Positions 21,157-64,000 of a stretch of 64,000 nt of DNA are shown one piece after another. The notes under the pieces are model-generated. The model saw nothing but the letters and a program-made list of their open reading frames with translations, had not been told where the DNA came from and did not search any database. The stretch is from an uncultured Acidimicrobiia bacterium. GTDB lineage: Bacteria > Actinomycetota > Acidimicrobiia > Spongiisociales > UBA5794. The DNA lies in contig CAWBVU010000005.1 in assembly GCA_963792405.1 (NCBI GenBank), positions 288,815 to 352,814 of the forward strand, given 5' to 3'. How positions within the stretch are numbered: the stretch's first letter is position 1; each line of letters begins with the position of its first letter. The position numbers and the translations under genes were made by a program.

Positions 21157-21235
21157 CGGCGCAGCGTACAACCTCGCGAGAATCCTCCGAAGTCCGAGCG
21201 CCGCTACCGGGAGTCGATGCGTAACCTCCCTGATC

Positions 21236-46644: not shown

Positions 46645-47643
46645 CTAGATGTCGCGGTTGATCTGTCGACGCTCCTTGATCCGACGGCGGAGATCCGACG
46701 TCGCCTTCCTACGGGCACGCCACTCGCGATATGCGACGACCGGGCTCATGCCCGCGACCCACGTGCCGAAGCTCGACCCGCGTCGCTTCTGCATCCCTGC
46801 GACACGGCGGACCTCGGCTCGCTGGCGCATGGACACGACGAACACCGGCGCCGCGGAGCCCGGTCCGCGGCGCCGCGCCGCGAGGAACAGGAGCATGGCA
46901 GCGGCTGCGATGGCGCCCACTGCGGCGATGGCCACGGTGGGCGATATGCCGCCGCCCTCCGCCGGGGGAGGCGGCTCCAGGGCCGACGGCGGCAGGAGGG
47001 TCGTCGTGGTCGTGGGGAGCTCTGTGGTCGTCGTGGCGAGGGTGGTCGTCGTCGCCACCGTCGTGGTGGTCGCCACGGTGGAGTCCGTCGGCGCCTCCGT
47101 TGTCGTGGTCGGCGCCTCCGTCGTCGTGGTGGTCGCGGGCGCCCTGGTGGTCGTCGTGGTGGGCCGCGTCGTGGTCGTGGTGGTCGGCCGCGTCGTGGTC
47201 GTGGTGGTCGGCGCCGCCGTCGTCGTGGTGGTGGCAGGGGCCTCGACCGTGAGGCTGAACCCGGCCGAGTCGCCCCCGGGGAGGTCGGTGAAGGTGAAGC
47301 CGTACGTACCAGGTGTCGCCTCGGAGTAGACCTGGAACGTGAACGTGAAGGTGGGTGCCGCACCGGTGCGACCAACCACGACGCCCGGCGCGCTCCCTGA
47401 CACACCGACACTCTGCTGGTCGGTGGTCACGGACACCGAGAAGCTGGATCCGGGAGGCACCGTGCGACTTCCGGGGCTCACGGACGAGATGACGGCCGAC
47501 GCGGGCGCGGAGGTCACGAGCGCGAGCAACGCCGCGAACGCGACGAGCACCGACCAGGAGCCCGACGCGCCCAAGCGTGTCTGCCTGATTCGGCCTGGCC
47601 TCACAGTGTCCCCCTCAGCAGAGTGTTCCCTGAGAATACGCAT
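46645..47643 (-). CDS. secreted/membrane-anchored protein with Ig-like N-terminus and Thr/Pro stalk (start uncertain)
   Basis: Signal-like hydrophobic segment, beta-rich domain, TTTTTT repeats, C-terminal TM and basic tail. Confidence 0.7.
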   Translation of the reverse strand: MRILREHSAEGDTVRPGRIRQTRLGASGSWSVLVAFAALLALVTSAPASAVISSVSPGSRTVPPGSSFSVSVTTDQQSVGVSGSAPGVVVGRTGAAPTFTFTFQVYSEATPGTYGFTFTDLPGGDSAGFSLTVEAPATTTTTAAPTTTTTTRPTTTTTTRPTTTTTRAPATTTTTEAPTTTTEAPTDSTVATTTTVATTTTLATTTTELPTTTTTLLPPSALEPPPPAEGGGISPTVAIAAVGAIAAAAMLLFLAARRRGPGSAAPVFVVSMRQRAEVRRVAGMQKRRGSSFGTWVAGMSPVVAYREWRARRKATSDLRRRIKERRQINRDI

Positions 47644-47717
47644 GTCCGCACGATGGGGACACTGGATCGACCATCGACGTGCACTCCCGCGTCCCCGGGG
47701 CGTACTTCCCGATTGCC

Positions 47718-49565
47718 CTACTCGGTGCGGGGCCCGACCCGGAACTCGCCGAGCGTATCCGCCATCGACCCGGCGGAGGCCGACATCTCGGGGCGGAGGG
47801 GGGCCAGGTTGTAGACGTAGCCGACGACACCGATGCCAACCAGGTCGAGCTGGCTGCGGAGCTCCTCGACGCTCTGGATGTCCTCACCATGGGCCACGAC
47901 CACCATCACCCTGTCCGCGAGCCACGCCAGGGAGGTCGCATAGGCGACCCTCAGCAGCGGCGGTGCGTCGATGATCACGAGGTCGTACGTGTCAGAGATG
48001 TGCTTGAAGAGTTTCGCCGTCACCGGTGAGGCGAAGAAGTCGGGAGCCTTCACCGGGGCGCCGCCTCGCGCCAGCAGCTCGATCGATCCGGATCCGCTGT
48101 GCTCGATCGGCACCACGGCCTTGGGAAGCGTGGTCGTGCCCGCCACGACGTCGGTCATACCGAGGGTCGGCGTCTCGTTTCCGATCAGCAACTGGGTCAG
48201 CTGCTGGTTCCCGAAGTCGGCGTCGACCACGAGCACCTTCTTCCCTTCCCTGGCAGCTGCGAGGGCGGTGTTCGCCGACACGGTGGTCTTGCCCTCCGAC
48301 AGGCCAGCGGAGAGCGACACGACGGACCCAAAGTTGCGCTCCTCGTTCTCGCTGAGGGGATAGAACTGCTGCAGGGAGAGGCTCGCCGCGATGAAGCGGA
48401 AGGCTTCAGCCGACACAGAGGCCGGGGCGTCGACAACGGGCAGGGCGGACTTGAGACGCTCCTCCCTGAAGTTCGGGACATCGGCGAGCAATCGCGTGCC
48501 GAGGATCGCTTCCGGTTCGGTCCGGCTCGTCAGCGTCTGGCGGCGTCCCGACAGGAGCATCGCCACACCGGCGCCGATGACGAGACCGGCGAGGAACCCG
48601 AGGGCGATGTAGGTGACCGAGCTGCTCGGCTTGGCCGTCTCGGCGAGCGAAGCGAAGACCACACCGTTGCCCGCCAGGTCCGAGTCGACGCTCAGCTGGT
48701 CCTTGCGTGCCTGGAGGTCGGTGAGGCGAAGCTGGTTCTCTGCTTGCGAGGACTCGAGTGCGATGCGCTGGGGATCGTTCGCCTCGAGCAGCAACGTGGC
48801 GTCACGGTCGGCTGCGAGCTGCTCGGACAGGGTCGAGATCTGGAGGGTGAGCACGTCGAGATCAGCGTTGAACTGGTTGAACCGCCCATCCGATGCCGAT
48901 GACGCCGGCGCCTCGAGCGCGTCGAGGGTCGTCCGGAGCTCGAGGAGGCGCGCCTGCTGGGCGACACGATCGGGATCGGTCGCCAGCTGGTTGAGGACCG
49001 CCTGCTGCCGTGCGCTCAATTGGGCTTCGAGGGCGACCTGGTCCGTCTTCAGCTGCTCGATCTGGCGGTCCAGTTCCTGTGTCGCCTCGGCGAAGCCGAG
49101 CGCCGCCGACTGGCGCCCGATGTCCTGATAAGCCGAGGTGACGGCATTCACGACCCCGATGGCCTCGCGCGCCGTGGGCGCCGTATACGAGAGATTCACG
49201 ATGTCACTGGTCGGTGACGCGCTGACGCTCAAGTTCTCCTCGATGTCATCCACCGTGACGACGATCGGAGGCTGCTGGTCCGCGGCGATCTCGACGGCCC
49301 GCCGCGCGACGGCACGGGACTCGAGGATGGCGATCTGGGCTTCGACGTATCGCTCGGGGTTGTCCGTGACGGCCTGGTCGAAGAGGTTCGACGTCCGGGG
49401 GTCCTGCACCGCGATCGTGGCCTCGGCCGTGAAGCTCTCGATGCTGTTGGCATAGAGCCAGCCGAGCCCCGCGAACCCGAGTGCCATCAGCATCACGAGC
49501 CACTTGTAGCGCCATACGGCATCGAGGACCGTGGGGTCGCTGCGTGTCGTTGTCTGTGTTGCCAT
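47718..49565 (-). CDS. wzc: Wzc-like polysaccharide co-polymerase / BY-kinase
   Basis: Two TM helices flanking a coiled coil; AEAFR, SAGLSEGKTT, VLVVDADF, LVIIDAPP. Confidence 0.85.
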   Translation of the reverse strand: MATQTTTRSDPTVLDAVWRYKWLVMLMALGFAGLGWLYANSIESFTAEATIAVQDPRTSNLFDQAVTDNPERYVEAQIAILESRAVARRAVEIAADQQPPIVVTVDDIEENLSVSASPTSDIVNLSYTAPTAREAIGVVNAVTSAYQDIGRQSAALGFAEATQELDRQIEQLKTDQVALEAQLSARQQAVLNQLATDPDRVAQQARLLELRTTLDALEAPASSASDGRFNQFNADLDVLTLQISTLSEQLAADRDATLLLEANDPQRIALESSQAENQLRLTDLQARKDQLSVDSDLAGNGVVFASLAETAKPSSSVTYIALGFLAGLVIGAGVAMLLSGRRQTLTSRTEPEAILGTRLLADVPNFREERLKSALPVVDAPASVSAEAFRFIAASLSLQQFYPLSENEERNFGSVVSLSAGLSEGKTTVSANTALAAAREGKKVLVVDADFGNQQLTQLLIGNETPTLGMTDVVAGTTTLPKAVVPIEHSGSGSIELLARGGAPVKAPDFFASPVTAKLFKHISDTYDLVIIDAPPLLRVAYATSLAWLADRVMVVVAHGEDIQSVEELRSQLDLVGIGVVGYVYNLAPLRPEMSASAGSMADTLGEFRVGPRTE

Positions 49566-49657
49566 GCCCTGGATGCCCTATCGCCCGGTGGAAGCGTACG
49601 CGCCGCGCCCACATACCGGCCAGCGTAGCCCGTGCCATCGTTCCGTGACCCGTCGCA

Positions 49658-50788
49658 TCAGCGCCCCGCCATCGCTCTCACGACGGCGACCACGGCCTCC
49701 TGCTGGTCCTCGCGCAGGTTCGCACTCGAGGGCAGGCAGACGCCTTCGCTGAACAGCCGCTCCGACACGCCTGACAGGGTGCTGTGGGCACCTGCGAAGA
49801 CCGGCTGCATGTGCATCGGCTTCCAGAGGGGACGGGACTCGATGTTCTCCTCCGCGAGGGCCGCCATGAGCTCGTCGTTCGTGGCACCGAACAGCTCCGC
49901 GTCGATCAGGAGTGCGGTCAGCCAGCGGTTCGCGACCCCGTAGTCGGCCTCTGGCATGAAGGTGATGCCGGGGAGGTCACCGAGTGCGTCGGCATACCGG
50001 TCGAAGATCGCCCGGCGCCGTGCAACCTTGTCGGGGAGTGCCTCGAGCTGCGCCAATCCGAATGCGGCGAGCAGGCTCGACATCCGGTAGTTGTAGCCGG
50101 TCTCGGAGTGCTCGTAGTGGGGGGCCGGATCCCTCGCCTGCGTGGCGAGGAAGAAGGCGCGGTCGACGTACGCATCGACATCCGACAGCAGCGCCCCTCC
50201 TGTGGAGGTGGTCATGATCTTGTTGCCGTTGAACGAGAGAATCGCGACGTCGCCGAAGCTCCCCGCTGGTCGTCCTCGGTAGGTGGCGCCGAGCGCCTCC
50301 GCCGCGTCCTCGATGATGGGGATCCCCTCCGCGTCGCAGATCGCCCGAATCGGGTCGTAGTCCGCGCACTGCCCCACGATGTCCACGACGATCACGGCCT
50401 TCGGCATCCTGCCCTTGCGTCGCGCCTGTGCGATCGCCCGCTCGAGCAGCTCGGGGTCCATGTTCCATGACGCCAGGTCGGAATCGACGAACCACGGTTC
50501 GGCGCCAACGGTCCGGAGCGGAGCCACGGAGCCGACGAAGGTGAACGTCGAGGCCATGACGAGGTCGCCGCGCTCGACCCCGAGCACGTCCAGGGCCAGG
50601 TGGATCGCCGACGTCCCCGATGAGAGACCGAGGACCCTGCGCACACCGGTCACCCCTGCGAGCTCGGACTCGAAACGCTCGACGAAGGGACCGAGCGGCC
50701 CGATCCAGTTGTCGTCGATCGCCTGCGCGATGTACTCGATCTCACGTCCGGACACGTCCGGCGCGGACAGGAACACCCGCTCGCCCAT
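49658..50788 (-). CDS. DegT/DnrJ/EryC1/StrS sugar aminotransferase (PglE/EpsN-like)
   Basis: SSGTSAIHLAL, IEDAAEALG, SFNGNKIMTTSTGG, GYNYRMS, SRPLWKPMH. Confidence 0.92.
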   Translation of the reverse strand: MGERVFLSAPDVSGREIEYIAQAIDDNWIGPLGPFVERFESELAGVTGVRRVLGLSSGTSAIHLALDVLGVERGDLVMASTFTFVGSVAPLRTVGAEPWFVDSDLASWNMDPELLERAIAQARRKGRMPKAVIVVDIVGQCADYDPIRAICDAEGIPIIEDAAEALGATYRGRPAGSFGDVAILSFNGNKIMTTSTGGALLSDVDAYVDRAFFLATQARDPAPHYEHSETGYNYRMSSLLAAFGLAQLEALPDKVARRRAIFDRYADALGDLPGITFMPEADYGVANRWLTALLIDAELFGATNDELMAALAEENIESRPLWKPMHMQPVFAGAHSTLSGVSERLFSEGVCLPSSANLREDQQEAVVAVVRAMAGR

Positions 50789-50961
50789 GTGGCCCTCCTC
50801 CACCTTCCCCGATTGGAGACCCCCGCGATGCCCACCGTCGGGGAGATGGCGGTCATCCTACCACGCACGGGCGTCGAGGGCTAACCCTGAGTGGCGGCTT
50901 TGCCACACTGTGTGTGGTGCTGGTAGTCTCCGCGCGAAGGGCGGACAGGAGTGTAGGAACG

Positions 50962-52563
50962 ATGATCGTCGACGGACGTGGCGTGCCGAACGCGTCACAG
51001 ATCGATACCGATATCTGCGTGATCGGCGCGGGTCCCGCTGGCCTGAGTCTCGCCTTGGAGTTCGCCTCGGCGGCCTCCACCAACGTGGTGATCATCGAGA
51101 CGGGTGCGATGGAGTTCGACCCGTCCGAGCAGGATCTCGCGACGGCAGAGGTGGTGGGCCACACGTACTTCCCCGTCCACGAGACCCGCATCCGCATGTT
51201 CGGCGGATCCACGATCTCGTGGGGAGGGATCGTGGCGCCGCTCGATCCCATCGACTTCGAGAAGCGGAGCTGGGTGCCCCACAGCGGCTGGCCCATCAGC
51301 CGCACCGACCTCGATCCGCACTACGCGCGGGCCTTCGCCCTCTGCGAGGTCGACCCGGAGGGGTCCGATTCGTCGACCGCCGACCTCGACGAGGCGGACG
51401 AGATGCACCCCACCTCCGACACCGTGTGGGATGCGATCTGGTTCTCCGCACCCGCCCGATTCGGGAAGATGTACGAGGGTGCGATCCGCGCCTCTCGCAA
51501 CGTGACGACGTACCTGCACTCGACGGCCCTGAAGCTCCACGTGAACGACGGCGGCAACCACATCGAGTCGCTCGAAGTGGGGACGAGAGGAGCTCACCGC
51601 TTCCACGTGCGTGCACGCCGGTTCGTGCTCGCGGGAGGGGGCATCGAGAACGCCCGGCTGCTGATGACGTCCAACGACGTGATCCCCGAGGGCATCGGCA
51701 ACCAGCACGATCTCGTCGGCCGGTTCTTCCAGGAACACCCTCGCGTGTTCAACCGGTACGCCCTCGATGGCGATTCGACGGGCCTCGCGCACTTCGTGAC
51801 GGGCGCTGCGGGCACGCTGCGGTTCTCGAGGCTCGGCCTGAGCGAAGGGGTCCAGCGGCGTGAGGAGCTCCTGAACTTCATCACGAACCTCTCATTCGGG
51901 TATGCGGGCCAGGAGACGCCACAGTTCGAGGCGATCCGTCGCGTCGTCAACGCGAGCCGCAAGCCGTGGTCGGACAGTCCCTACTACCAGGACACGGGTG
52001 GCGGGCCGAACAGGGTCCGATGGGAGGACGTGAAGATCTCCATGGTGAAGCCGCATCGCACGGTCCAGAGCCTCATCGGCGCGGCATTGCGACCCGCTGG
52101 CATGCGGCGGTGGCTGTCGATCGGATGCAGCGTCGAGCAGCCTCCCCGTCCCGACAACCGCATCGTGCTGTCCGGTGACAAGGACCGGTTCGGCATCCCG
52201 AAGGCGGAGCTCCGCTGGACGCTGAGTGAAGCCGAGGAGCGGACCTACCGTCGCGGCATGGAGATCGTCCTCAATGCCATCGAGACGTACGACCCCGGCA
52301 TCGCCTCGCGGCGATACGACGATCCCGATCCGTGGCCGAGCAAGGCCATTGGCACATGGCATCACGCGGGGACGACGAGGATGTCCTCCTCCCCAACCGA
52401 GGGTGTCGTCGACGAGGACCTGCGGGTCCACGGGGTGGACAACCTCTTCATCACGGGCTCGTCGGTGTTCCCCGCGAGTGGGGCCACGGCGCCCACCCTC
52501 ACGACCATCGCCCTTTCGGTCCGCCTCGCCGACCACCTGAAGAAGATCGAGAGCCTCGCGTGA
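50962..52563 (+). CDS. GMC-family FAD oxidoreductase
   Basis: IGAGPAG, FGGSTISWGG, GGIENARLL, VGRFFQEHP, HHAGTTRM, GSSVFP. Confidence 0.9.
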   Translation: MIVDGRGVPNASQIDTDICVIGAGPAGLSLALEFASAASTNVVIIETGAMEFDPSEQDLATAEVVGHTYFPVHETRIRMFGGSTISWGGIVAPLDPIDFEKRSWVPHSGWPISRTDLDPHYARAFALCEVDPEGSDSSTADLDEADEMHPTSDTVWDAIWFSAPARFGKMYEGAIRASRNVTTYLHSTALKLHVNDGGNHIESLEVGTRGAHRFHVRARRFVLAGGGIENARLLMTSNDVIPEGIGNQHDLVGRFFQEHPRVFNRYALDGDSTGLAHFVTGAAGTLRFSRLGLSEGVQRREELLNFITNLSFGYAGQETPQFEAIRRVVNASRKPWSDSPYYQDTGGGPNRVRWEDVKISMVKPHRTVQSLIGAALRPAGMRRWLSIGCSVEQPPRPDNRIVLSGDKDRFGIPKAELRWTLSEAEERTYRRGMEIVLNAIETYDPGIASRRYDDPDPWPSKAIGTWHHAGTTRMSSSPTEGVVDEDLRVHGVDNLFITGSSVFPASGATAPTLTTIALSVRLADHLKKIESLA

Positions 52564-52651
52564 TGGAGCGAGGCGGGATGCGTCGACGTCTCGGTCGTAT
52601 TGCAGTCGTGCCACCATTGACGAGTCAGACACACCGGGGGGACCCACGCAC

Positions 52652-53677
52652 ATGAAGCTCCTGATCCTTGGCGCTGGTGGATTCATTGGATCCAACCTCG
52701 TCGAACACCTCATCGCCGAGGGCGTCCACGACGTGACGGGTGTCGACGTCGACCACGAGAAGCTCGAAGGGATCACCGGTCCGAACTTCACGTTCATGCC
52801 GTTGGACATCGTCTCCGACGCGGCGTCCGTCGAGGGGCTCATCGCCGAGACCGACGTGGTCGTGGACCTCGTCGCCTACGCCAATCCGAGCCTCTACATC
52901 TCGGCGCCGCTGGACGTCATCCGGCTCAACTTCATGGTCAACGTCGACACGGTCGAACACTGCGTGAAGCACGGCAAGCGACTGTTCCAGTACTCGACGT
53001 CCGAGGTCTACGGCAAGCCGTCCGGTCCCACCTACAAGGAGGACGAGTCCGACCTCGTCGTGGGGCCCGTCGCGAAGCAGCGGTGGGTCTACTCGGTGTC
53101 CAAGCAACTCCTCGAGAGGGTGATCCAGGCCCACGGGCTGCGCGGCGACCTCGACTACACCGTGGTGCGCCCGTTCAACTTCATCGGGCCGCGCTTCGAC
53201 TACCTCGTGCCCGCCGGCACCATGGGCGGCCCGAGAGCGCTGTCCCACTTCATGTCGGCCCTGTTGACCGGGGGGCCGATCTTCCTCGTCGACGGAGGGC
53301 ACCAACGGCGGTCCTTCACCCACATCGACGACGCGAATCGGGCGTTCTCCACGCTGCTCGACCACCAGGGGGCGAGGAACGAGGTCTTCAACATCGGCAA
53401 CCCCGCCAACGACACCTCGATCAAGGAGGTGGTCGCGCTGATGATGGAGCTCTACGAGGAGCTGACCGGCGTGCACCCGACGAACGAGATCGTCGAGGTC
53501 ACCGGTGAGGAGTTCTATGGCGTCGGCTACGAGGACTCACATCGCGTCGTGCCCGACATCGGGAAGCTGGAGGCACTCGGTTGGTCACCCGAGTACGACC
53601 TGAGGGAGACGTTCCGGGCGACGATGGAATCGTATCTCGACTCCGGGGCGCTCATCGCAGGAGGAACCGCACCGTGA
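52652..53677 (+). CDS. UDP-glucuronate decarboxylating SDR, UDP-apiose/xylose synthase- or ArnA-like
   Basis: GAGGFIGS, STSEVYGK, KQRWVYSVSKQL, VRPFNFIGPR, LVDGG, FNIGNP, EFYGVGYEDS. Confidence 0.8.
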   Translation: MKLLILGAGGFIGSNLVEHLIAEGVHDVTGVDVDHEKLEGITGPNFTFMPLDIVSDAASVEGLIAETDVVVDLVAYANPSLYISAPLDVIRLNFMVNVDTVEHCVKHGKRLFQYSTSEVYGKPSGPTYKEDESDLVVGPVAKQRWVYSVSKQLLERVIQAHGLRGDLDYTVVRPFNFIGPRFDYLVPAGTMGGPRALSHFMSALLTGGPIFLVDGGHQRRSFTHIDDANRAFSTLLDHQGARNEVFNIGNPANDTSIKEVVALMMELYEELTGVHPTNEIVEVTGEEFYGVGYEDSHRVVPDIGKLEALGWSPEYDLRETFRATMESYLDSGALIAGGTAP

Positions 53678-55911
53678 TGTCCGCAACGATCCGGCGCCTC
53701 GCCATGCCCGCCGCCGTCCTTGCGATGCTCGCATCCATGGTCGTCGTCGCCCCGATCTCGGTCGCGGGACAGGAGGATCCTCCCATCGAGGGAACGGTGC
53801 TGGTCGTCGCTCCGCATCCCGACGACGACGTGATCACGGCAGCAGGCATCACCTACAACCGGGCGAACACCTACATCGCCTACATGACCCATGGCGACTC
53901 CCACACCGAGGATCGGCAGGGGACCGTGACGGCCGTCACGACCACGACTCGGTTCTCGGACTCGTCAGCGGACTTCTCCGACGTCCCGACCGGGGTCAGC
54001 ATCACGATCACGAAGGGCGCCGTGAACTACGTGCGCGACGATCACCCAGGTGGTGAACGGCACCACGATCGAGATCGATGCACCGTTGCCGGCACCCGGC
54101 CTCGCCGTGGGGGACACCTACGACACCGTCGCGTTCATCCCGATCGGGATCGCCGAGACCCGGCAGGCCGAAGCCGTGTCCGCACAGGCCATCCTCGGGA
54201 GGGTGGAGAACGACCTGATCTTCCTCGGCTACCCGGATTTCAAGCTGACCGATGTGTGGAACACCACTTCCGGAGCAGTCATCGGGGGAACCGGGCGAAC
54301 GGCGACGTACGCGTCGAGGGGTCTCGGTCGGACCGACTGGCACGACTACCGGATGGGAGCCGGCACCCAACATGCCCCCTACAACCGGGAGGCGATGTTC
54401 GCCGACGTCCTCGCCCTCATCACGACACTCGAGCCCGATCACATCTTCACGACGTCGCCCGAGGACGGCACGGCGGACCACCGCACGACCTACACCGTCG
54501 TGAAGGCCGCACTCGAGCAGGCCCACGAGGACGATCCCAGCTACGGCGCCGTGCTGCACCGCACCGTGGTGTGGCAGAAGCCCTTCAGCACCTGTCTCAA
54601 CAACTCTGGCCGCTCGATTACCCGGGCTCGGGTGAGCCCCGGGCATACACCGATCCCAGCGCCATCGACCGCGTCGGGCTCTGCGGCATCTCCGAGCCAT
54701 TCGCCCCCGACTGGGACGATCGCGATGTGCACAACGTCCCGCCTGCCCTGATGAATCCCAACCCCGGATCCAACCCCAAGTACCGGGCGATCGACACGCA
54801 CGCCAGCCAGGGCGGCATGAGCTATGGCTCCTACATCGCACGGTTCTTCCACAGCGACGAGTTCTTCTGGGCGGAGGCCATCCCCGCGTCGTCCGCGGTG
54901 AACGACGGTCCCTACACCGTCGACCAGGGCAAGCAACTCGCCGTCAACGGGGTGCTCGAGAACGACACGGGGCTCGGGATCACTGCAGAGCTCGTCACGG
55001 GGCCTTCACACGCTGCGTCGTTCGCGCTGTATGCGAACGGCTCGTTCGCCTACACGCATGACGGATCGGCGACGACCTCCGACTCCTTCACCTACCGTGC
55101 CGTCGATGCGGCAGGGAACGGGACGACGGCCACGGTGACGATCACCGTCATCCCCGACATCATCCCTCCGCCCCCTCCCCCACCTCCGGGTGGGCCAGTG
55201 CACTCGATCGTGCTCATCGATCCGAGCCAGGGACTGTGGCATCTGTACGACCGCAACGGCGTGGAGAAGACGTCGTTCTTCTTCGGGAACCCGGGCGACT
55301 ATCCCATCTACGGGGACTGGAACTGTGACGGCATCGAGACGCCCGGCATGTACCGCCAGTCCGACGGATACGTCTACCTCCGCAACACCAACACCCAGGG
55401 ACCGGGCGACATCCGGTTCTTCTTCGGGAACCCCGGCGACATCCCCCTGGCAGGCGACTTCAACGGTGACGGATGCGACACCGTGTCGATCTACCGGCCC
55501 TCGGAGGCCAGGGCGTTCATCATCAACAAGCTCGGCCAGAACGATGGTGGCCTCGGCGCAGCGGACGTGACCTACTTCTTCGGCAATCCCGGTGACAAGC
55601 CGTTCGTCGGTGACTTCGACGGCAACGGCACGGAGACCGTTGGCCTGCACCGCGAATCGACGGGTTTCGTGTACTTCCGCAACTCCCACACCCAGGGCGT
55701 CGCGGACACCACGTTCTTCTTCGGAGACCCCGGTGACCGACTCGTGGCAGGCGACTGGAACAACAACGGGGCGTTCTCACCGGCGCTGTTCCGCCCCTCG
55801 AACACGACGATGTACTTCCGCTACACCAACACCCAGGGCAACGCCGACGCGTCGTGGATCGGCGGCCAGTCCGGGTGGCTGCCGGTCTCGGGCTACAACG
55901 CCCTCGGCTGA
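53677..55911 (+). CDS. secreted PIG-L deacetylase + Ig-like domain + GDW-repeat module; compensating frameshifts near 54037 and ~54600
   Basis: Signal peptide; APHPDDD, THGD, then LIFLGYPD and ADHRTT in the shifted frame (ORF 54050..54751); NGSFAYTHDG Ig-like domain; four GDW/GDF repeats. Confidence 0.8.
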   Translation: MSATIRRLAMPAAVLAMLASMVVVAPISVAGQEDPPIEGTVLVVAPHPDDDVITAAGITYNRANTYIAYMTHGDSHTEDRQGTVTAVTTTTRFSDSSADFSDVPTGVSITITKGAVNYVRDDHPGGERHHDRDRCTVAGTRPRRGGHLRHRRVHPDRDRRDPAGRSRVRTGHPREGGERPDLPRLPGFQADRCVEHHFRSSHRGNRANGDVRVEGSRSDRLARLPDGSRHPTCPLQPGGDVRRRPRPHHDTRARSHLHDVARGRHGGPPHDLHRREGRTRAGPRGRSQLRRRAAPHRGVAEALQHLSQQLWPLDYPGSGEPRAYTDPSAIDRVGLCGISEPFAPDWDDRDVHNVPPALMNPNPGSNPKYRAIDTHASQGGMSYGSYIARFFHSDEFFWAEAIPASSAVNDGPYTVDQGKQLAVNGVLENDTGLGITAELVTGPSHAASFALYANGSFAYTHDGSATTSDSFTYRAVDAAGNGTTATVTITVIPDIIPPPPPPPPGGPVHSIVLIDPSQGLWHLYDRNGVEKTSFFFGNPGDYPIYGDWNCDGIETPGMYRQSDGYVYLRNTNTQGPGDIRFFFGNPGDIPLAGDFNGDGCDTVSIYRPSEARAFIINKLGQNDGGLGAADVTYFFGNPGDKPFVGDFDGNGTETVGLHRESTGFVYFRNSHTQGVADTTFFFGDPGDRLVAGDWNNNGAFSPALFRPSNTTMYFRYTNTQGNADASWIGGQSGWLPVSGYNALG

Positions 55912-56063
55912 TCACCACGCCGAGGAGCCGGGCAACCACTGCGGGAGTTCTTTTCGACACCCTCAGTAGTTGATGGTAGAGTTCGCCCCGGACCGGCGAT
56001 CGATCGCCGGCGCCCGTCGGGTGTCCCACGCGGCGGGCCAGGGGCTTACGGCTAGGAGATGCG

Positions 56064-58563
56064 ATGGTTGGCTCTCGTAATTCACGGGCGAGCGCATTGG
56101 TGCTCGCCCTCTTCCTGTTGATCTCCCTCCTCGTGGTGATCACCGCAACACCCGGACCGGCCGACGCGTCCGCGCCGGGCACGAACGGCAAGATCGTCTT
56201 CGAGCAGGGCGGCGGTATCTACTCGATGAACGCCGACGGTTCGGGCATCACCCCGTTGTGGGTCGAGTCCGGCGTCAAGAACTACTCGCCGGCCTGACTC
56301 CCCCGACGGGACGAAGATCGCGCTGTCCTCCGACAAGACCGGTACAACGACCGGGACCAACATCTGGGTGATGAACATCGGACGGCACGCGGAGGACCCA
56401 GAGGACCTTCCTCAATGACGAGGACCACGTTCCAGCCGACGTGGTCCCCCGATGGGCAGTACATCGCCTATGAGCAACTCGACACGTTCGAGGTCCAGGG
56501 CACGACGACCGCAGGCACCACGACCACCATCCTCGAGGACACGACCAAGAACTTCACGACACTTGGCGTCGCGGTCGGCATGACCGTGGACGTCGCCGGC
56601 GCGTGGGGACGGTCGCCACGGTCGGCACCACGACGGTCACGCTGTCGGCTGCCATCCCCGCGATGACCACGGCCAGGCGTACACCATCCTGAGGGACCGC
56701 TATCGCATCTACCTCACGACGGCGACTGGTGGGACCACCGCACCGAAGAACCTGTCCGCTTCGATCGTGGAGTTCGCCCCGAAGGTCTACACCGACTACG
56801 CACCATCGTGGTCGCCGAATGGCGCCAAGCTCGCCTTCACGACGGGCCGCAACGGCCCCGAGGACATCTACATGGCGACGATCGACCCTGGGCCGGAACG
56901 CTGACGGGCATGACGAACCACACGCCGGATCCCGGGTGGCCGACGCGGTCGTGGGAGCCCGAGTGGTCCCCGGACGGCGACGAAGATCGCATTCCAGTCG
57001 CCGGACACGGGCTTCGAGAACATCTGGACGATGCCGGCGACGAGCACCACAGGCGGCAGATCCAGCTGACCGACCAGCGGGACCACGCTCGACCGTAGTG
57101 CGACGTGGTCCCCCGATGGCACGAACATCGTGTTCCACCGCGACGGCGGCGTGCCGTACGTCGATGACAACGAGGAGCTGATCAGGGTCCCGTCCGGCGG
57201 TGGTGCCGAGGTGAATCTCACCAATTCGACTGGCACGTTCGAGAAGCAGCCGAGCTACCAGCGGCTGAACGTCGCGACGGACGACACCTATGCCATCACG
57301 GTCGGTGGGTCGATCAACTCGGCGGCTCCGGGCGTGATGGGCAACGACGTCGGCCTCGGCGGCAACCCGCTCGCAACGGCGACCGTCGTTGCCGGACCCA
57401 CGCATGCCGTGGGGGGCTCGTTCGTGTTCAACCCCAACGGGTCGTTCACCTACACGCACGACGGAACCGCCAACGATGATGCGTTCACCTACCGGGTGAC
57501 GACGCCGGGCGGCAACCTGTCGAACATCGCGACCGTCGCGATCACGATCCCCGGCAACCCGCCAGTCGCGAACCCCGACGCGTATGACGTGGACAAGGGC
57601 GGAACGTTGACGGTTCCGGCGCCGGGAGTGCTGGGGAACGACACCGACAGCGAGGACGGGAAGCCCACAGGCGCCGTCCTCAAGACCGCCCCGGCGCATG
57701 CGGCATCGTTCACGCTCAACGCCAACGGGTCGTTCACGTACGTGCATGACGGATCGGCTGGGACGTCCGACACCTTCACCTACCAGGCGAAGGACTCGGG
57801 CAACAAGCTGTCGAACGTCGCGACCGTGACGATCACCATCACCTCGGACATCCACACGGTGGTCCTCGTGGACCCATCCCAGGGCATGTGGCATCTCTAT
57901 GACGCCGCAGGTGTGGAGAAGACGTCGTTCTTCTTCGGGAACCCGGGTGACTACCCGATCTATGGCGACTGGAACTGTGACGGGATCGAAACACCCGGCA
58001 TGTACCGCCAGTCCGACGGGTACGTGTACCTGAGGAACACGAATACCCAGGGAGCAGGTGACATCAGGTTCTTCTTCGGGAACCCCGGTGATGTGCCGAT
58101 CGCAGGTGACTTCAACGGCAACGGCTGTGACACGGTGTCGATCTACCGTCCGTCGAACCAGACGTTCTACATCATCAACGTGCTCGGCCAGAACGATGGC
58201 GGGCTCGGTGCGGCAGAGTTCTCCTACGTCTTCGGAGACCCGGGGGACAAGCCGTTCGTCGGTGACTTCGATGGGAACGGGACCGAGACGGTCGGGCTGC
58301 ATCGCGAGTCGACCGGGCTGGTGTACTTCCGCAACTCCCACACGCAGGGCAACGCGGACAACCAGTTCATCTACGGCGACCCGGGTGACCGGCTCGTGGC
58401 AGGCGACTGGAACGGCAACGGTGTCTTCTCACCGGCACTGTTCCGCCCGTCCAACACCACGATGTACTTCCGGTACACCAACAGCCAGGGCAACGCAGAC
58501 GCCCAGTGGACCGCAGGCAGCACGGCATGGCTGCCCGTGTCCGGCAACAACGGACTCGGCTGA
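56064..58563 (+). CDS. secreted TolB-like (PD40) propeller + two Ig-like domains + GDW-repeat module; many indels at 56290-57080
   Basis: Signal peptide, PGTNGKIVF, repeated WSP(D/N)G blades in shifting frames, intact C-terminal ORF from 57130. Confidence 0.75.
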
Positions 58564-58588
58564 CCCGCCGGGACAGCTGGACGAAACG

Positions 58589-58619
58589 CAGTGGCGGCGC
58601 CCATCGGGCGCCGCCACTG
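58589..58619. terminator. probable bidirectional terminator
   Basis: 14-bp perfect inverted repeat CAGTGGCGGCGCCC/GGGCGCCGCCACTG between convergent genes. Confidence 0.8.
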
Positions 58620-58682
58620 GTGTTTCCGTGACCATGCTGCCGGTGGCTCGGTTCCACCGCAGCGCATGACCGACCGTGCGAC

Positions 58683-60203
58683 TCACTCCCAGGTGCCGTC
58701 GACGTCCTGCCCCAGGGCGATCCAGCCATCTCTGTCGTACTCGGCACCGTCCCACGCATACGCGCGCCGGCCACCAACGGCGATGTAGCGGTTGGAAGTG
58801 AAGCGAATGTCACGCTCCTCGATCACGAACACGCCGCCCACGTCGTGCACGATGCCGATGGTCCCCGACGGCTGGCGGACCTCGTTGTCGTGCACATGGA
58901 TGCGAGCGAGCCATCGGACGCCGAGGGGACCTTCTCCACGCTCCTGCTGGATCCCCACGATGCCATCGGCGTTGTCGTACACCCTGTTGTCAGCGACCTC
59001 GACGTCGAAGGATGCGGCGACGAGGATGCCCCCTCCCCATGCCCACTCGCTCTTGCCGAAGCCGTTGCCCGTGACCTCGTTGCCGCGGATGACGGCGGAC
59101 CCCGAGATCTCATGGAAGATGCCGGGCCCGAGGTTGTCGGTGACCGTGTTGCCCTCATACGTCGTGTCGACGGCGTCGATGTCCGTCCACAGCCCCGGAC
59201 CGAGATTGTCGTGGGAGAAGGTGCGTTGCACGACGAGACCGTCGGTACGCGTGAACTTCCCGCCACCTCCCTCCCACTCCCAGAAGTAGCCACGGGTGTT
59301 GTTGTGGTCGAATTCCGAGTCGGTGATCACGACGCCGCTGCCGCCCGACACGGCGATGCCGAGCTGGCCGTTGTGGTGTGAGTGGACGCGGGAGACGACG
59401 GTGCGCTCGCCCGTCTTGATGCCGACCGCGTGGTTGAGGCGCACCTCGACGTCCTCGATCGTCCAGTCCCGACCGTGTTCACCGTTGCCGGGGCCTTCGG
59501 CCTGGATCGCACCCTCCTGCGATGGTGTGGCGTACTTCTCGACGATCAGGTCCCGGATGGTCACACCCGAGGCCGAGCCGATGAACGCATAGGGCTCGAT
59601 GCTCACCTCGATGAGCCGGCTGGTTGGGTCGTCGGCGATCACGATCCTGCCGTCACCGCCCCACCAGCTTCCCGGCTCGACTTCCTCGAGCGTGTCGGAT
59701 CGCCAGAGCATGACGCCGTCGATGTACACGTCGTTCGGCAGGCCGCACGAGTCGTACCCGGGGATGCACTCACCCCACGCCTCCGTCGACAGCGGCACGC
59801 CCTCGACGCTCCAACGGTTCCCGTCGGGCGTGAATCCGTCGAGAACCACCGCACCCGACATGACCGCACCGGACATACCCGCGAAGGTCATGCCGTCCTT
59901 CGGCACGACGGTCGGCGCCCGGTGGGTGCCGGCGGTGAGGAGGAAGGCCGTCCCCGGCTCGGAGGACTCGACGAGGGCGGCGAGGTCATCCGAGGGTGAC
60001 ACGAGCACCTGGCCGTCCTCGGTGGTCGTCGGCGGCGTCGTGGAGGTGGTCGTGGACGTGCTGGTCGTTGCAGGTGGCAACGTCACCGAGGTCAGTGGGT
60101 AGCGGTCAGCGCCGTCGCCGGAACAGGATGCCACGACCAGTCCGAGCGCCACGCCGATGACGGTCATGCCGATGCGACGGCGAGCGCTCGCTTCAGCGGC
60201 CAC
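58683..60203 (-). CDS. right-handed parallel beta-helix lipoprotein
   Basis: Lipobox VASC, Thr linker, Asn-ladder repeats (HHNGQLGI, HDNLGPGLWTD, GIFHEIS). Confidence 0.85.
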   Translation of the reverse strand: MAAEASARRRIGMTVIGVALGLVVASCSGDGADRYPLTSVTLPPATTSTSTTTSTTPPTTTEDGQVLVSPSDDLAALVESSEPGTAFLLTAGTHRAPTVVPKDGMTFAGMSGAVMSGAVVLDGFTPDGNRWSVEGVPLSTEAWGECIPGYDSCGLPNDVYIDGVMLWRSDTLEEVEPGSWWGGDGRIVIADDPTSRLIEVSIEPYAFIGSASGVTIRDLIVEKYATPSQEGAIQAEGPGNGEHGRDWTIEDVEVRLNHAVGIKTGERTVVSRVHSHHNGQLGIAVSGGSGVVITDSEFDHNNTRGYFWEWEGGGGKFTRTDGLVVQRTFSHDNLGPGLWTDIDAVDTTYEGNTVTDNLGPGIFHEISGSAVIRGNEVTGNGFGKSEWAWGGGILVAASFDVEVADNRVYDNADGIVGIQQERGEGPLGVRWLARIHVHDNEVRQPSGTIGIVHDVGGVFVIEERDIRFTSNRYIAVGGRRAYAWDGAEYDRDGWIALGQDVDGTWE

Positions 60204-60323
60204 GGCCGTCCTCCCCTCCGTCGTCCGCGCACATCGCGGGAGCGATGCAGTGGGGCCCTGATCGTACCAGCGCCGGGAGGGTCACCTCCCGGCGCTGGTC
60301 AGTGCCTGTGATCGAAGAACGGC

Positions 60324-61985
60324 CTAGAAGATGCCCGGTCCGATCGGTGCGTTCCAGTCGTTGTCGTGGATCCATGCATCACAGCCGCCACCGTCGTAGA
60401 AGCCGTTGCTGTACCCACCTGCGGCACGCCAGTTCACCTGGTTGCCGACGACCTCCACCGAGCCACATCCGCCGTACTGGTCCCAGACGTACATGCCGAC
60501 GTTGGACCAATCCAGGGCGTCGGAGTAGATCCGGTTCCCGCGAACCACGATGTCGCTGCCCGACGACACGCCGATACCGACCTGGCCCGGGTTGACGAGG
60601 ACGTTGCCCTCGACGAGCTGATGGGCGCCCTGGCCGTCACCGAGCATGATGCCCGAACCGGAACCGGAGGGCCCTCCGTTGCGGAGGTGGTTGCCCACGA
60701 TCCGGATCGGCGACGACGCCGTACCCGACGAGGAGAACAGCGAGATCATGTCCTCGACATCCGAGTTCCCGAGCTCGTTCTGCCCGCGGTTGCCAGAGAT
60801 CGAGGATCCCGCACCATTGACCTTGTCGAACTGGACGAGGTTCCGTCCCGCGTTCACGAAGGCGTTGCTGTCGACCCGTACCGAGTCGGAGCGATGCACC
60901 AGGACGCCATTGTTCGTGCCCGTGATGTAGTTCCCGGTCACCGAGGCGTTCGTGACGTCGGACAGGTAGACCGCATCGTCGCCGCATGGTCCGATCGTCG
61001 AGTTCCGAATCGTCACGTTCGAGCCACCGATCACCGACACGCATGTGCCGCCGGGGTTCGAGATGTGGAGGTTCTCGATGACGACGTTCGAGTCGCCCGA
61101 GATCCTCACCGGGCCCGAGGGTGTGCGGGGCGGCGGGGCGTCGAAGCCGGGGACCGAGACGGTCGTGCCGGCATTCGCGACCGTGCCGATGCCCGAGGCG
61201 GGGATCGCAATGCGGTTCCGCGGGCCTGCGAACGTGTAGGAGGCCGCACCCGACGCGTTGGCGTTGGAGATGTACAGCACACCCGTGGCGGGTCGATACA
61301 CGGCCACCGTGTCGTCGCCATCACCATCCCAGTCGCCAGCGATCACGCGATCATTCGGATCACCGAAGTAGAACACCCGATCCGGCACACCCGCGGAGTT
61401 GCGGTCCCGCAACGCCACCAGCCCGGTCGTGGAGCGGAACACGCCGATCGAATCGACTCCGTCACCGTTCCAGTCCCCCACGATCGGGGAATCGCCATGG
61501 TCCCCGAAGTAGAAGACACGATCGGCAACCACATTGCCCAACCGATCCGACAGGTAGAACTTCGCCTCCGACGGGCGATAGATCGCCAGCGTGTCACACC
61601 CGTCCCCGTCGAAGTCACCGACCAACGGCACGTCGCCCGGACTCCCGAAGTAGAACGACTTCTCGGCAACACCCTGCGAGTTGGAGTTGCGGAGATACAC
61701 CGACCCGGTCGAACGTCGGTACATGCCGGGGGTCTGCTCCCCGTCACAGTCCCAGTCACCCATCAGCGGCTCATCAGCCGGGTTCCCGAAATAGAACGAC
61801 CCGACGGGCGTGCCGGGCACGAGGTCCTGGTAGAGCGAGTAGACGGCCTGGTTGTCGACGAAGGCGACCGTGTCGCACTCGTCGCCGGTGCAGACCTCTG
61901 CGGCGTCGGCCGGACGTGGCGCTGCGAACAGCATGGCCGCCGCTGCGAAGAAGGCGAAGAGGACGGCAAGCGTCCTGCGTCTCAT
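60324..61985 (-). CDS. secreted protein: N-terminal GDW-repeat module + C-terminal beta-helix
   Basis: Signal MRRRTLAVL...ADA; four GDW/GDF repeats; IENLHISNP...NSTIGPCG...GSGIMLGDG beta-helix. Confidence 0.88.
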   Translation of the reverse strand: MRRRTLAVLFAFFAAAAMLFAAPRPADAAEVCTGDECDTVAFVDNQAVYSLYQDLVPGTPVGSFYFGNPADEPLMGDWDCDGEQTPGMYRRSTGSVYLRNSNSQGVAEKSFYFGSPGDVPLVGDFDGDGCDTLAIYRPSEAKFYLSDRLGNVVADRVFYFGDHGDSPIVGDWNGDGVDSIGVFRSTTGLVALRDRNSAGVPDRVFYFGDPNDRVIAGDWDGDGDDTVAVYRPATGVLYISNANASGAASYTFAGPRNRIAIPASGIGTVANAGTTVSVPGFDAPPPRTPSGPVRISGDSNVVIENLHISNPGGTCVSVIGGSNVTIRNSTIGPCGDDAVYLSDVTNASVTGNYITGTNNGVLVHRSDSVRVDSNAFVNAGRNLVQFDKVNGAGSSISGNRGQNELGNSDVEDMISLFSSSGTASSPIRIVGNHLRNGGPSGSGSGIMLGDGQGAHQLVEGNVLVNPGQVGIGVSSGSDIVVRGNRIYSDALDWSNVGMYVWDQYGGCGSVEVVGNQVNWRAAGGYSNGFYDGGGCDAWIHDNDWNAPIGPGIF

Positions 61986-62406
61986 GCCGTGGCGATTCCG
62001 ATCGGTGGTGTGGCCCGTGTGGTGGAGAATCATGTGAATCAGCGTGTCCTTGATCGTGTGCGCGCACTGAAGGGTTTCAGTGGCGTCATCGAGTCCCGGT
62101 GGGTTTCAGAGGCGCCAGCGCGGTGCCTGCCCAGACCTGGATGCACCGTGGTCCACGATGTACATCGCTTGTCGGTGACCATCGGGGCTGATCGACTGTG
62201 TGTTTGCGTGTGCCTGGTCGCCAGCGCGGTGACTAGCGCGTTCGGAGCCTCGTCGATGGTCCTCGGGCAGCGTATCAGCACGATTCGAAAACCGCACACC
62301 GAAATCGGCCAACTGCGCACCGATGCGATGTGCGAAGCGCCCGGCACCTCCGAAGGGGAGTGTGCCGGGCGCCGCCTCGGAGATCCGAGAGGTCGCACGA
62401 GGGGAC

Positions 62407-64000
62407 TCAGAAGATCCCCGGTCCGATCGGTGCGTTCCAGTCGTTGTCGTGGATGTTGGCGTCGCAGCCGCCTCCGTTGTAGAAGCCGTTGCTGTACCCG
62501 CCCGCAGCGGTCCAGTTCACCTGGTTGCCGGTGATCTCGACCGATCCGCAGCCACCGTACTGGTCCCACACGTAGAGCCCCACGTTCGACCAGGCAACCG
62601 GATCGGAGTAGATGCGGTTGTTGCGCACGATGATGCCGCTGCCCGATGCCACGCCGATGCCGACCTGTCCCGGATTGACGAGGACGTTGCCCTCGACGAT
62701 CTGGTTCGTGCCCTGGCCGTCACCGAGCATGATGCCCGAACCGGAACCGGACGGCCCACCGTTGCGCAGGTGGTTGCCGGCGATGCGGATGGGGGAGGAC
62801 GCCGTGCCGGAGGAGGCGAACAGCGAGATCATGTCCTCGGCGTTCGAGCCCCCGAGCGCGTTCTGGCCACGGTTGCCCGAGATCGATGATCCCGCACCGT
62901 TCACCTTGTCGAACTGGACGAAGTTCCGCCCGGCGTTGACGAAGGCGTTGTTGTCGACCCGGACCGAGTTCGACCGGTGGATGAGCACGCCGTTGCCCGT
63001 GCCCGTGATGTAGTTCCCCGTCACCGTGACGTTCGTCACGTCGGACATGTACACGGCTTCGTCGCCGCACGGGCCGATCGTGGAGTTCCTGACGGTGACG
63101 TTCGCTCCGCCGAACACCTCGACGCAGATCCCTCCCGGGTTGGAGATGTGGAGGTTCTCGATCACCACGTCCGAGTCACCCGAGATCCTGATCGGACCCG
63201 ATGCGGCTCGGGACGGCGGGGCGTCGAAGCCCGGCACCGGTCCGACCTCGGTCGCAGGAGGTGGCGGTGTCGTCGAGCCACCGGAGTTCCCGCCCGACGT
63301 TCCGCCGGAGGCAGGCGCCGGAGTCGCCGGCGGGGGTGGGACATAGGTCATCTGCGGCACGGAGGCGGGATCGATGCCGGAAGCGGGAACCACCCGCTGG
63401 CCGCGCCCGACCTCGATCCACGTGTCGGCGACGCCCGTACGGTTGGCGTTCGAGATGTAGAGGATCCCATTCGACGGTCGGTAGACGGCCACGGTGTCAT
63501 CGCCATCGCCATCCCAGTCGCCCGCGATCACACGATCGTTGGGATCGCCGAAGGTGAACACTCGATCCGGGGTCCCCGCCGAGTTGCCGTCACGCAGGGC
63601 GACCAGACCGGTGTTCGGACGGAACACGCCGATCGTGTCGACGCCGTCACCGTTCCAGTCCCCGGCGATCGGGGAGTCGCCGTAGTCGCCGAAGTAGAAG
63701 ACACGCTCGGCGACCACGCCACCGAGGCGATTCGAGAGGTAGAAGCGTGCTTCCGAGGGACGGTAGATCGCCAGCGTGTCGCAGCCGTCGCCATCGAAGT
63801 CGCCGACCAGCGGCACGTCGCCCGGGCTCCCGAAGTAGAACGTCCGGTCAGCGACACCCTGCGAGTTCGAGTCCCGCAGGTACACCGATCCGGTCGACCG
63901 GCGGTACGTGCCGGGCGTCTGCTCCCCGTCGCAGTTCCAGTCTCCCATCAGGGGCTCGTCTGCGGGGTTGCCGAACCAGAAGGATCCTACGGCTGCCTCG
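62407..64000 (-). CDS. tandem paralog of 60324..61985 (5' end outside window)
   Basis: Same architecture, same C-terminus IHDNDWNAPIGPGIF, longer Pro/Gly linker. Confidence 0.88.
   Translation of the reverse strand, partial: EAAVGSFWFGNPADEPLMGDWNCDGEQTPGTYRRSTGSVYLRDSNSQGVADRTFYFGSPGDVPLVGDFDGDGCDTLAIYRPSEARFYLSNRLGGVVAERVFYFGDYGDSPIAGDWNGDGVDTIGVFRPNTGLVALRDGNSAGTPDRVFTFGDPNDRVIAGDWDGDGDDTVAVYRPSNGILYISNANRTGVADTWIEVGRGQRVVPASGIDPASVPQMTYVPPPPATPAPASGGTSGGNSGGSTTPPPPATEVGPVPGFDAPPSRAASGPIRISGDSDVVIENLHISNPGGICVEVFGGANVTVRNSTIGPCGDEAVYMSDVTNVTVTGNYITGTGNGVLIHRSNSVRVDNNAFVNAGRNFVQFDKVNGAGSSISGNRGQNALGGSNAEDMISLFASSGTASSPIRIAGNHLRNGGPSGSGSGIMLGDGQGTNQIVEGNVLVNPGQVGIGVASGSGIIVRNNRIYSDPVAWSNVGLYVWDQYGGCGSVEITGNQVNWTAAGGYSNGFYNGGGCDANIHDNDWNAPIGPGIF

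Follow-up and report, generated by a model that had tools for sequence, protein, structure and literature searches.

What is understood of surface display in Gram-positive bacteria comes from the Firmicutes and a few Actinomycetes, where it relies on sortases, SLH and CWB2 domains, LysM domains and choline-binding repeats. The Acidimicrobiia are abundant in sediments and waters and almost uncultured, and to our knowledge their envelope is essentially unknown. This study concerns a window of 64,000 nucleotides (the whole stretch of DNA that was analysed; contig CAWBVU010000005.1 of assembly GCA_963792405.1, positions 288,815 to 352,814) from an uncultured member of this class, and in particular a propeller module shared by four secreted proteins of the surface-glycan locus at its end.

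The described systems that come closest are wall-binding domains on the one hand and propeller lectins on the other. Clostridioides difficile has 29 cell wall proteins (Cwps) with CWB2 domains, and the words 'propeller' and 'VCBS' are absent from the available portion of the review of wall-binding domains that gives this count (PMC5817068, 2018). The VCBS supercluster is defined by the cation-binding motif DxDxDG (PMC9218822). The propeller of UmbA4 binds the teichuronic acid of a target Streptomyces in pockets between and on the blades, and among the UmbA lectin domains 12 families are five-bladed propellers (PMC13274773). The sugars bound by tachylectin-2 lie between blades (PMC4735018). Pereira and Lupas (2021) described 'VCBS actinolectins', propellers of the VCBS supercluster that are confined to actinobacteria and have signal sequences, none being characterised according to that paper; bacterial tachylectin-like propellers are also named there (PMC8023676). 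Neither the present module as an anchor nor a propeller as a genome-wide tag of secreted proteins in Acidimicrobiia was found in searches of the Creative Commons papers of PMC and of bioRxiv. The fold and the supercluster are already known. We favour, with moderate confidence, a module that serves as a non-covalent anchor on an envelope glycan, in the way that SLH and CWB2 domains do.

Sequence, predicted fold and relatives of the module

A hidden Markov model (HMM) built from the four window copies matched each of them at E values of 1e-122 to 1e-128, and the four shared modules named in a first-pass annotation of the stretch hold, coordinates included (Table 1). The module is about 235 aa long, and the 22 paralogous copies of this genome that were aligned have a mean column identity of 65%. 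AlphaFold2 on this alignment returned a model of 20 strands (predicted local distance difference test, pLDDT, 95.5; predicted template modelling score, pTM, 0.89) in the form of a closed five-bladed beta-propeller with four-stranded blades and 3+1 closure. On this model the module is a self-contained five-bladed propeller of the VCBS/FG-GAP supercluster. The annotation had counted four repeats; these stand in the sequence as blades 1-4, while the predicted fold closes with a fifth blade, to which the N-terminus contributes three strands and the C-terminus its last one. The motif G-D-(W/F)-(D/N)-x-D-G lies in four of the five blades (1-4) and is invariant or nearly so in the 22 paralogues. The early pointer to VCBS/FG-GAP-type propellers with DxDxDG loops is supported by the structure prediction, the propeller being of the five-bladed lectin type.

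Two cysteines, Cys43 and Cys93, are positioned in the loops of blade 1 and blade 2. Among 140 full-length modules from the best 150 representatives of the public search described below, 111 have both cysteines, 28 have neither and one has a single cysteine. The pair noticed at first as conserved is thus a covarying one, which fits a disulfide and therefore points to an extracytoplasmic life of the module. There is no dedicated Pfam or NCBIfam family for the module, NCBIfam giving 0 families on it, and the Pfam models SLH, LysM and PG_binding_1 match neither the module nor its carriers. Matches in the ESM Atlas fall into clusters named 'hypothetical protein' alone, with FG-GAP families on 12-35% of the members, and help little in recognising the module.

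The best match of the module model in VIA-align, run against representative structures, was tachylectin-2 (1tl2; Z 13.5, root-mean-square deviation 3.1, 200 residues aligned, chain 235), followed by UmbA4 (9oee; Z 12.5, deviation 4.2, 227 residues aligned) and, further down, by the wall-teichoic-acid-binding receptor-binding protein of phage phi11 (5efv, Z 11.0) and the Psathyrella lectin (2bwm, Z 10.0). Foldseek placed 9oee first (E 4e-8). A profile search of all PDB sequences gave the same entry as the sole match below E 0.01 (E 6.4e-7), and the blade signature P-x-x-G-D-F-(N/D)-G-D-G aligns between the module and 9oee.

Carriers in the genome and in public data

The HMM was run on 30,573 six-frame open reading frames (ORFs) of the 2.89-Mb genome, which is 96% complete. 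It matched 29 ORF pieces, equal to 27 genes, two genes being present in two pieces each. The module is always located at one end of the protein, N-terminal in 14 carriers and C-terminal in 13, and its passengers are unrelated, in keeping with the portability first proposed. A signal-like hydrophobic N-terminus was recognised in 27 of 27 carriers from hydropathy and by eye, not with SignalP; the segment is found further inside the stop-to-stop frame in two carriers and in another frame piece for the PD40 protein. By this heuristic the count agrees with the claim that the module belongs to secreted proteins. The passengers comprise wall enzymes (M15_4, M23, YkuD, SpoIID, VanW and an LCP ligase), glycosidases (GH16, GH26 and GH114), and S8 protease, CAP, GSDH, 5'-nucleotidase, fasciclin, Calx-beta, an Rv1352-like domain, PIG-L, PD40 and beta-helices. 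No Pfam family was found in 11 of the 25 carrier ORF pieces scanned. The glycan locus holds five of the carriers; the other 22 are elsewhere, and six of these act on peptidoglycan or on wall-polymer ligation. Other anchors in this genome are represented by 2 sortase genes, 2 LysM ORFs and 4 PG_binding_1 ORFs, with 0 SLH.

The LCP carrier is one gene, broken near L002:8500 as judged by the profile of GC at third codon positions (GC3). The genome has an LCP (LytR_cpsA_psr) wall-polymer ligase without a module at window positions 20726-22285, 25 kb upstream of the glycan locus, and a second LCP, which has an N-terminal module, at G000 C5:380131-382273. A second hotspot, unrelated to that locus, is G000 C6:374457-388947, where seven carriers, mostly wall enzymes, lie within 14.5 kb (GH26, CAP, S8, M23, YkuD, SpoIID and VanW). 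The consecutive GH26, CAP, S8 and M23 genes (G000 C6:374457-381685) end in modules that are 90-94% identical in DNA, with identical runs of up to 593 bases, and both cysteines are lost in all four; from its sequence the quartet looks like a product of gene conversion or of very recent module copying. Two near-identical inverted module genes, each in two frame pieces and with passengers that have no family match, occur at G000 C6:346162-349270.

A profile search of 1.84 billion cluster representatives gave 32,705 matches at E <= 1e-3 and 8,185 at E <= 1e-30, which makes this a large family. In the best 150 representatives, 129 of the 148 domain hits are terminal (87 C-terminal, 42 N-terminal) and 19 internal. 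A signal-like N-terminus is present in 113 of these 150 proteins, and the other 37 mostly appear to be cut at the N-terminus. Pfam assigned a passenger family to 41 of 65 top representatives, among them Calx-beta, PKD, trypsin, S8, NHL, LRR, PD40, PIG-L, Amidase_2, beta-helix and DUF1996. One metagenomic carrier belongs to the ABC substrate-binding proteins of the Bmp type and has a signal peptide that lacks the lipobox Cys; a protein of this kind must remain with its own cell. Relatives are named at their sources 'hypothetical protein', 'VCBS repeat-containing protein' or 'Ig-like domain-containing protein', or after the passenger, as in 'LmbE family N-acetylglucosaminyl deacetylase'.

In a sample of 201 genomes of the class, the module was matched at E <= 1e-60 in 13, this one included, all of them in the order of the window's own genome; it was not found at this threshold in the other orders of the sample. 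Positive genomes number 6 of 9 in family f1, 3 of 20 in f2, 1 of 8 in f3, 1 of 6 in f4 and 1 of 1 in f65, and the scored copies per positive genome range from 1 to at least 14. In a sample of 251 genomes of the phylum a match at E <= 1e-20 was obtained in 20, those outside the order being weak and partial. The best 80 loci from species genomes are mostly from metagenome-assembled genomes labelled Acidimicrobiia, Acidimicrobiaceae, Actinomycetota or Actinomycetes; the label is Acidobacteriota for several others and Kiloniellaceae for one.

In favour of the anchor reading are the apparent restriction of the module to exported proteins, its terminal position, its conservation on about two dozen unrelated passengers, among them enzymes that must work on the wall of their producer, and a lectin fold close to that of a wall-glycopolymer binder. 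A common ligand is suggested because the 22 paralogous modules keep their 65% mean column identity while the passengers are unrelated. Carriers would be exported by an N-terminal signal peptide, as their sequences suggest. Outside the membrane the module would fold, taking up to four Ca2+ into the loops of blades 1-4 (from the motif) and forming a disulfide between the loops of blades 1 and 2 (from the covariation). Its binding would then be multivalent, to a sugar structure that is repeated in the envelope of the same cell, in the manner of propeller lectins, and the fused passenger would thereby be held non-covalently at the cell surface. Such a module would be a general display tag of one order of the Acidimicrobiia, with 27 genes using it in this genome. 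At the glycan locus the PIG-L deacetylase, the PD40 protein, two lyase-like helices and the Calx-beta protein would act on the polymer at the surface, trimming or modifying it. The candidate ligand may be the polymer of this locus or a more conserved wall glycan, peptidoglycan included.

The glycan locus

The features of the locus within the window are collected in Table 1. The assignments of Wzc, DegT, GMC and a UDP-glucuronate decarboxylase as neighbours of the carriers, made earlier from the letters alone, agree with Pfam and NCBIfam matches. For the Wzc-like protein every match to the eps and tyrosine-autokinase families of NCBIfam is under its cut-off. The DegT protein matches a LegC family at 1.6e-105, also under the cut-off, and the ArnB type at 1.5e-50. 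The decarboxylase scores 297.6 bits with NF008872 (cut-off 294), 2.7e-80 with ArnA and 2.9e-44 with Pfam Epimerase. The flanking Thr-rich protein has a signal-like start, a long Thr/Pro-rich run, one membrane span and a basic tail, and 0 Pfam and 0 NCBIfam families. The locus continues for about 15.5 kb beyond the window end with genes for a 437-aa protein without assignment, a Wzy_C polymerase-type protein, a sugar nucleotidyltransferase, GT4, a fifth carrier (Calx-beta), UDP-glucose dehydrogenase and a polyprenyl-phosphate sugar transferase. Judged by this gene content, the five carriers sit inside a cluster of the Wzx/Wzy type with a UDP-glucuronate branch. A genome of another genus in the same family (G427) has the same arrangement, with an intact gene for PD40, Big_9 and module, and with GMC, GT4, Wzy, a CE4 deacetylase, Calx-beta and UDP-glucose dehydrogenase.

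Table 1. Features of the glycan locus in the window (positions counted from the first base of the window)
Feature	Position	Strand	Evidence or remark
Thr-rich single-pass membrane or surface protein, 332 aa	46645..47643	-	ORF and translation; flanks locus
Wzc-like chain-length determinant / tyrosine autokinase	47718..49565	-	Pfam Wzz 2.1e-7, AAA_31 2.7e-12
DegT-family sugar aminotransferase	49658..50803	-	Pfam DegT_DnrJ_EryC1 7.5e-95
GMC-family FAD oxidoreductase	50959..52563	+	Pfam GMC_oxred_C 1.2e-23, FAD-binding N-terminus; inferred start MIVDG
UDP-glucuronate decarboxylase type SDR (UDP-4-keto-pentose/UDP-xylose synthase, ArnA C-domain-like)	52652..53677	+	
Secreted PIG-L/LmbE-type deacetylase with Big_9 Ig domain and C-terminal propeller module	53677..55911	+	
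Module copy on PIG-L protein, C-terminal	55198..55905	+	hmmsearch E 5e-128
Secreted PD40 (TolB-like) propeller with two Big_9/cadherin-like domains and C-terminal propeller module	56064..58563	+	
Module copy on PD40 protein, C-terminal	57850..58560	+	hmmsearch E 2.6e-128; sequence used for modelling
Right-handed beta-helix protein without module	58683..60203	-	Pfam Beta_helix 1.5e-20
Protein I: signal peptide, N-terminal module and polysaccharide-lyase-like beta-helix	60324..62033	-	Pfam Beta_helix 4.8e-17
Module copy on protein I, N-terminal	61185..61877	-	hmmsearch E 1.3e-127
Protein J: module and beta-helix, paralogue of protein I	62407..64000	-	continues 377 bases beyond window end
Module copy on protein J	63370..64000, clipped by window end	-	coordinates computed from whole-ORF match

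The whole ORF of protein J (C5:351224-353191) is matched by the module HMM at E 5.2e-122, and its signal-like N-terminus falls in the 377 bases beyond the window end. The helix parts of proteins J and I are 84% identical. An AlphaFold2 model of the helix part of protein I, made from 5 sequences, has a pLDDT of 87.4; Foldseek matched it first to the alginate lyase 6kfn (E 1.2e-5, TMq 0.61) and then to the Vibrio polysaccharide lyase RbmB and to phage tailspike depolymerases. The lyase-like fold of the model suggests that the tagged helix proteins I and J are probably depolymerases of an acidic polymer. A phmmer search of PDB sequences (E <= 0.01) gave no match for the helix of protein I, for the helix protein without a module or for the intact homologue of the PIG-L protein. 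The helix protein without a module has a lipoprotein-type N-terminus (ending VVASC; lipobox recognised by eye) and a Thr-rich linker in place of the module. The similar beta-helix proteins of one locus would thus have two ways of being held at the surface, a lipoprotein N-terminus and the module, and the same trio, one without and two with N-terminal modules, is found in G427. The equivalent place of the two loci has different deacetylase families: PIG-L is fused to the module in the window, and in G427 (C4, L096:5482-7758) an ORF for a CE4 polysaccharide deacetylase comes three bases after a module ORF of 348 aa.

The ATG of the PIG-L gene overlaps the TGA of the decarboxylase gene in TGATG at window positions 53675-53679, with AGGAGG 11 bases upstream. 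This arrangement indicates that the two genes are co-translated, and a secreted deacetylase would therefore be translationally coupled to a cytoplasmic nucleotide-sugar enzyme. The reading frame of the PIG-L gene is broken twice in the assembly, near 54037 and near 54605, and an intact homologue of 743 aa (P0031) aligns to the gene in frames 1, 2 and 1. The PD40 gene has at least six such breaks, from about 56290 to about 57080, judged by an intact homologue of 839 aa (P0032); an intact orthologue of 840 aa is present in G427. Contigs of four other public metagenome runs were aligned to the stretch and cover it piecewise, no single contig spanning it. Some of the pieces have 0 to 10 differences from the window over 160-650 bases and others have more. 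Compared with the window, contigs have one base fewer at 54037 (2 runs) and one extra base after 54605 (2 runs), and in the PD40 region they have indels at 56670, 56975/56979 and 57045-57079. These single-base indels in matching contigs indicate that the PIG-L and PD40 genes are intact in close relatives, and the breaks come either from errors in the consensus or from private mutations. Homopolymer error was rejected as the cause in the PIG-L gene, both sites being without homopolymer runs. A Thr/Val-rich insert of about 65 aa common to the PIG-L and PD40 proteins was also considered and dropped, as BLASTP of these segments from the intact homologues gave no alignment at E up to 10.

Weighing of the anchor reading and comparison with known systems

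Co-occurrence of module and locus was compared across the order in 12 genomes that have the module (positive) and 20 that lack it (negative), among the genomes listed, related genomes not being independent. Wzy-type homologues are present in 7 of the 12 positive genomes and in 0 of the 20 negative ones, with a positive/negative pair within one genus (g177). The GMC protein was rejected as a tracker of the module, any match at E <= 1e-10 occurring in 6 of the 12 positive and 4 of the 20 negative genomes.

Several points weigh against an envelope anchor of the kind proposed. A Wzy homologue is absent from 5 of the 12 positive genomes, and the 437-aa neighbour is less specific (7 of 12 positive versus 4 of 20 negative genomes). 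A GMC orthologue (at least 53% identity) occurs in only 3 of the 12 positive and 0 of the 20 negative genomes, and a genome of the same genus has a 34% match only; this speaks against tying the module to this particular polymer. The association with the locus is real but incomplete, and it is trivial in part because the carriers are physically inside the locus and the genomes are related. A replacement anchor on the 5'-nucleotidase was looked for in five module-negative relatives; the one orthologue there (G387, 59% identity) ends after the catalytic domains with nothing instead, and the tag is therefore dispensable for that enzyme; on the question of a substitute anchor the outcome is neutral. 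Pfam FG-GAP_3 reaches 21.1 and 18 bits on the window proteins against a gathering cut-off of 26.9; two paralogues are above it (30.7 and 28.4 bits), yet no single stretch passes. A shared fold, here a predicted one, is by itself no proof of function, propellers mediate protein-protein contacts too, and many passengers (M23, amidase, proteases and glycosidases) would suit enzymes directed at other cells as well.

The first-pass annotation had linked the module to the adjacent glycan genes and had it dock modifying enzymes on the polymer made next door. The link has some support from the synteny with G427 and from the distribution of Wzy, and fails in that of GMC; docking on the adjacent polymer is weakened because 22 of the 27 carriers are elsewhere and 5 of 12 module genomes have no Wzy homologue, and we hold it as possible but doubtful. 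A narrower proposal is order-specific display by a Ca2+-dependent lectin matched to a Wzy-dependent, UDP-glucuronate-fed polymer, whose locus would encode its own tagged deacetylase and lyases; this is put forward tentatively, as something that may well prove incorrect.

The propeller could instead be a carbohydrate-binding module by which enzymes, once released, are directed to glycans outside the cell (such as those of particles or of algal or fungal walls) or to competing bacteria at their walls, as the lectins of UmbA aim umbrella toxins. The closest solved relative, UmbA4, recognises the teichuronic acid of another species, proteins that combine trypsin with the module are similar to the UmbA layout, and lytic or degradative types are numerous among the passengers (M23, Amidase_2, trypsin, S8, GH16, GH26, GH114 and the lyase-like helices). 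However, the LCP ligase, L,D-transpeptidase, SpoIID, VanW and the one ABC substrate-binding protein must act on the envelope of their producer, and the carriers of the locus are embedded among biosynthetic and not catabolic glycan genes. The modules of paralogues are moreover conserved (65%), whereas the UmbA lectins have diversified into 41 families (PMC13274773). A foreign target is considered unlikely on this balance.

More improbable still is a module that docks not on a glycan but on a scaffold made of protein, for instance an S-layer, stalk protein or cohesin-like partner. A single conserved partner would fit the terminal position and the high conservation, and contacts between proteins are a common role of beta-propellers, with recognition of carbohydrate and of protein alike noted for VCBS propellers (PMC9218822); yet the nearest relatives in structure and sequence are lectins, co-occurrence with the Wzy-type polymerase speaks for a glycan, and no candidate gene for the partner was identified. 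Least likely is an aid to folding or stability (solubility, protease resistance) or an export-competence domain later removed, without a role in targeting: with four DxDxDG-type loops and a disulfide, folding would seem confined to the cell exterior, and in secreted proteases a C-terminal extension is often a processing domain, but an N-terminal position is seen in 14 of the 27 carriers of this genome and for 42 of the 148 domain hits from public data, the module occurs on non-enzymes (fasciclin, Calx-beta stalks, LRR proteins), and a lectin-fold domain of 235 aa would be costly for such a role.

If the module is an envelope anchor, its presence on about 1% of the genes would make the surface proteome of these organisms easy to list. 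The module would also offer a handle for finding the wall polymer that it binds, and possibly a display tag for biotechnology. The propeller lectin fold that aims Streptomyces toxins at foreign walls would then be used elsewhere to hold the cell's own proteins.

UmbA4, from an umbrella toxin of Streptomyces coelicolor, is like the module actinobacterial and secreted, and shares the blade signature and its loops of the Ca2+ type. Its ligand is a wall glycopolymer, and the one proposed for the module would likewise be an envelope glycan. UmbA4 differs in having six blades and 18% identity, and in belonging to a diversified family on a toxin particle aimed at other species, whereas the module is five-bladed, strongly conserved and carried by housekeeping enzymes of the envelope. 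The UmbA lectin domains are fused to a trypsin-like domain and associated with UmbB/UmbC; a trypsin domain is found in 0 of the 27 carriers of this genome and in some metagenomic carriers. Tachylectin-2, a lectin for GlcNAc and GalNAc, resembles the module in length (235 aa), in its five blades of about 47 residues and in velcro closure; it is a eukaryotic stand-alone immune lectin with 9% identity, and the likeness is structural. The VCBS actinolectins, compared by description only, share the actinobacterial host and the signal sequence; they are described as stand-alone or placed behind a TIM barrel, in contrast to the wide fusion of the module (PMC8023676). The Psathyrella velutina lectin, which binds GlcNAc, and the FG-GAP propellers of integrin alpha have the FG-GAP/DxDxDG Ca2+ loops in common with the module (Z 10.0 and 9.5), but are seven-bladed and eukaryotic.

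In function the comparison is with SLH domains, which bind a pyruvylated secondary cell-wall polymer, and with CWB2. The module shares with them the logic of a non-covalent binder carried at either end of about two dozen unrelated exported proteins, wall hydrolases included. Their folds and sequences are unrelated to it, and their binding is proven whereas that of the module is proposed. A matched pair of polymer and anchor in this order would have counterparts in the pairs of SLH and pyruvylated secondary cell-wall polymer and of CWB2 and PSII, on an unrelated lectin fold.

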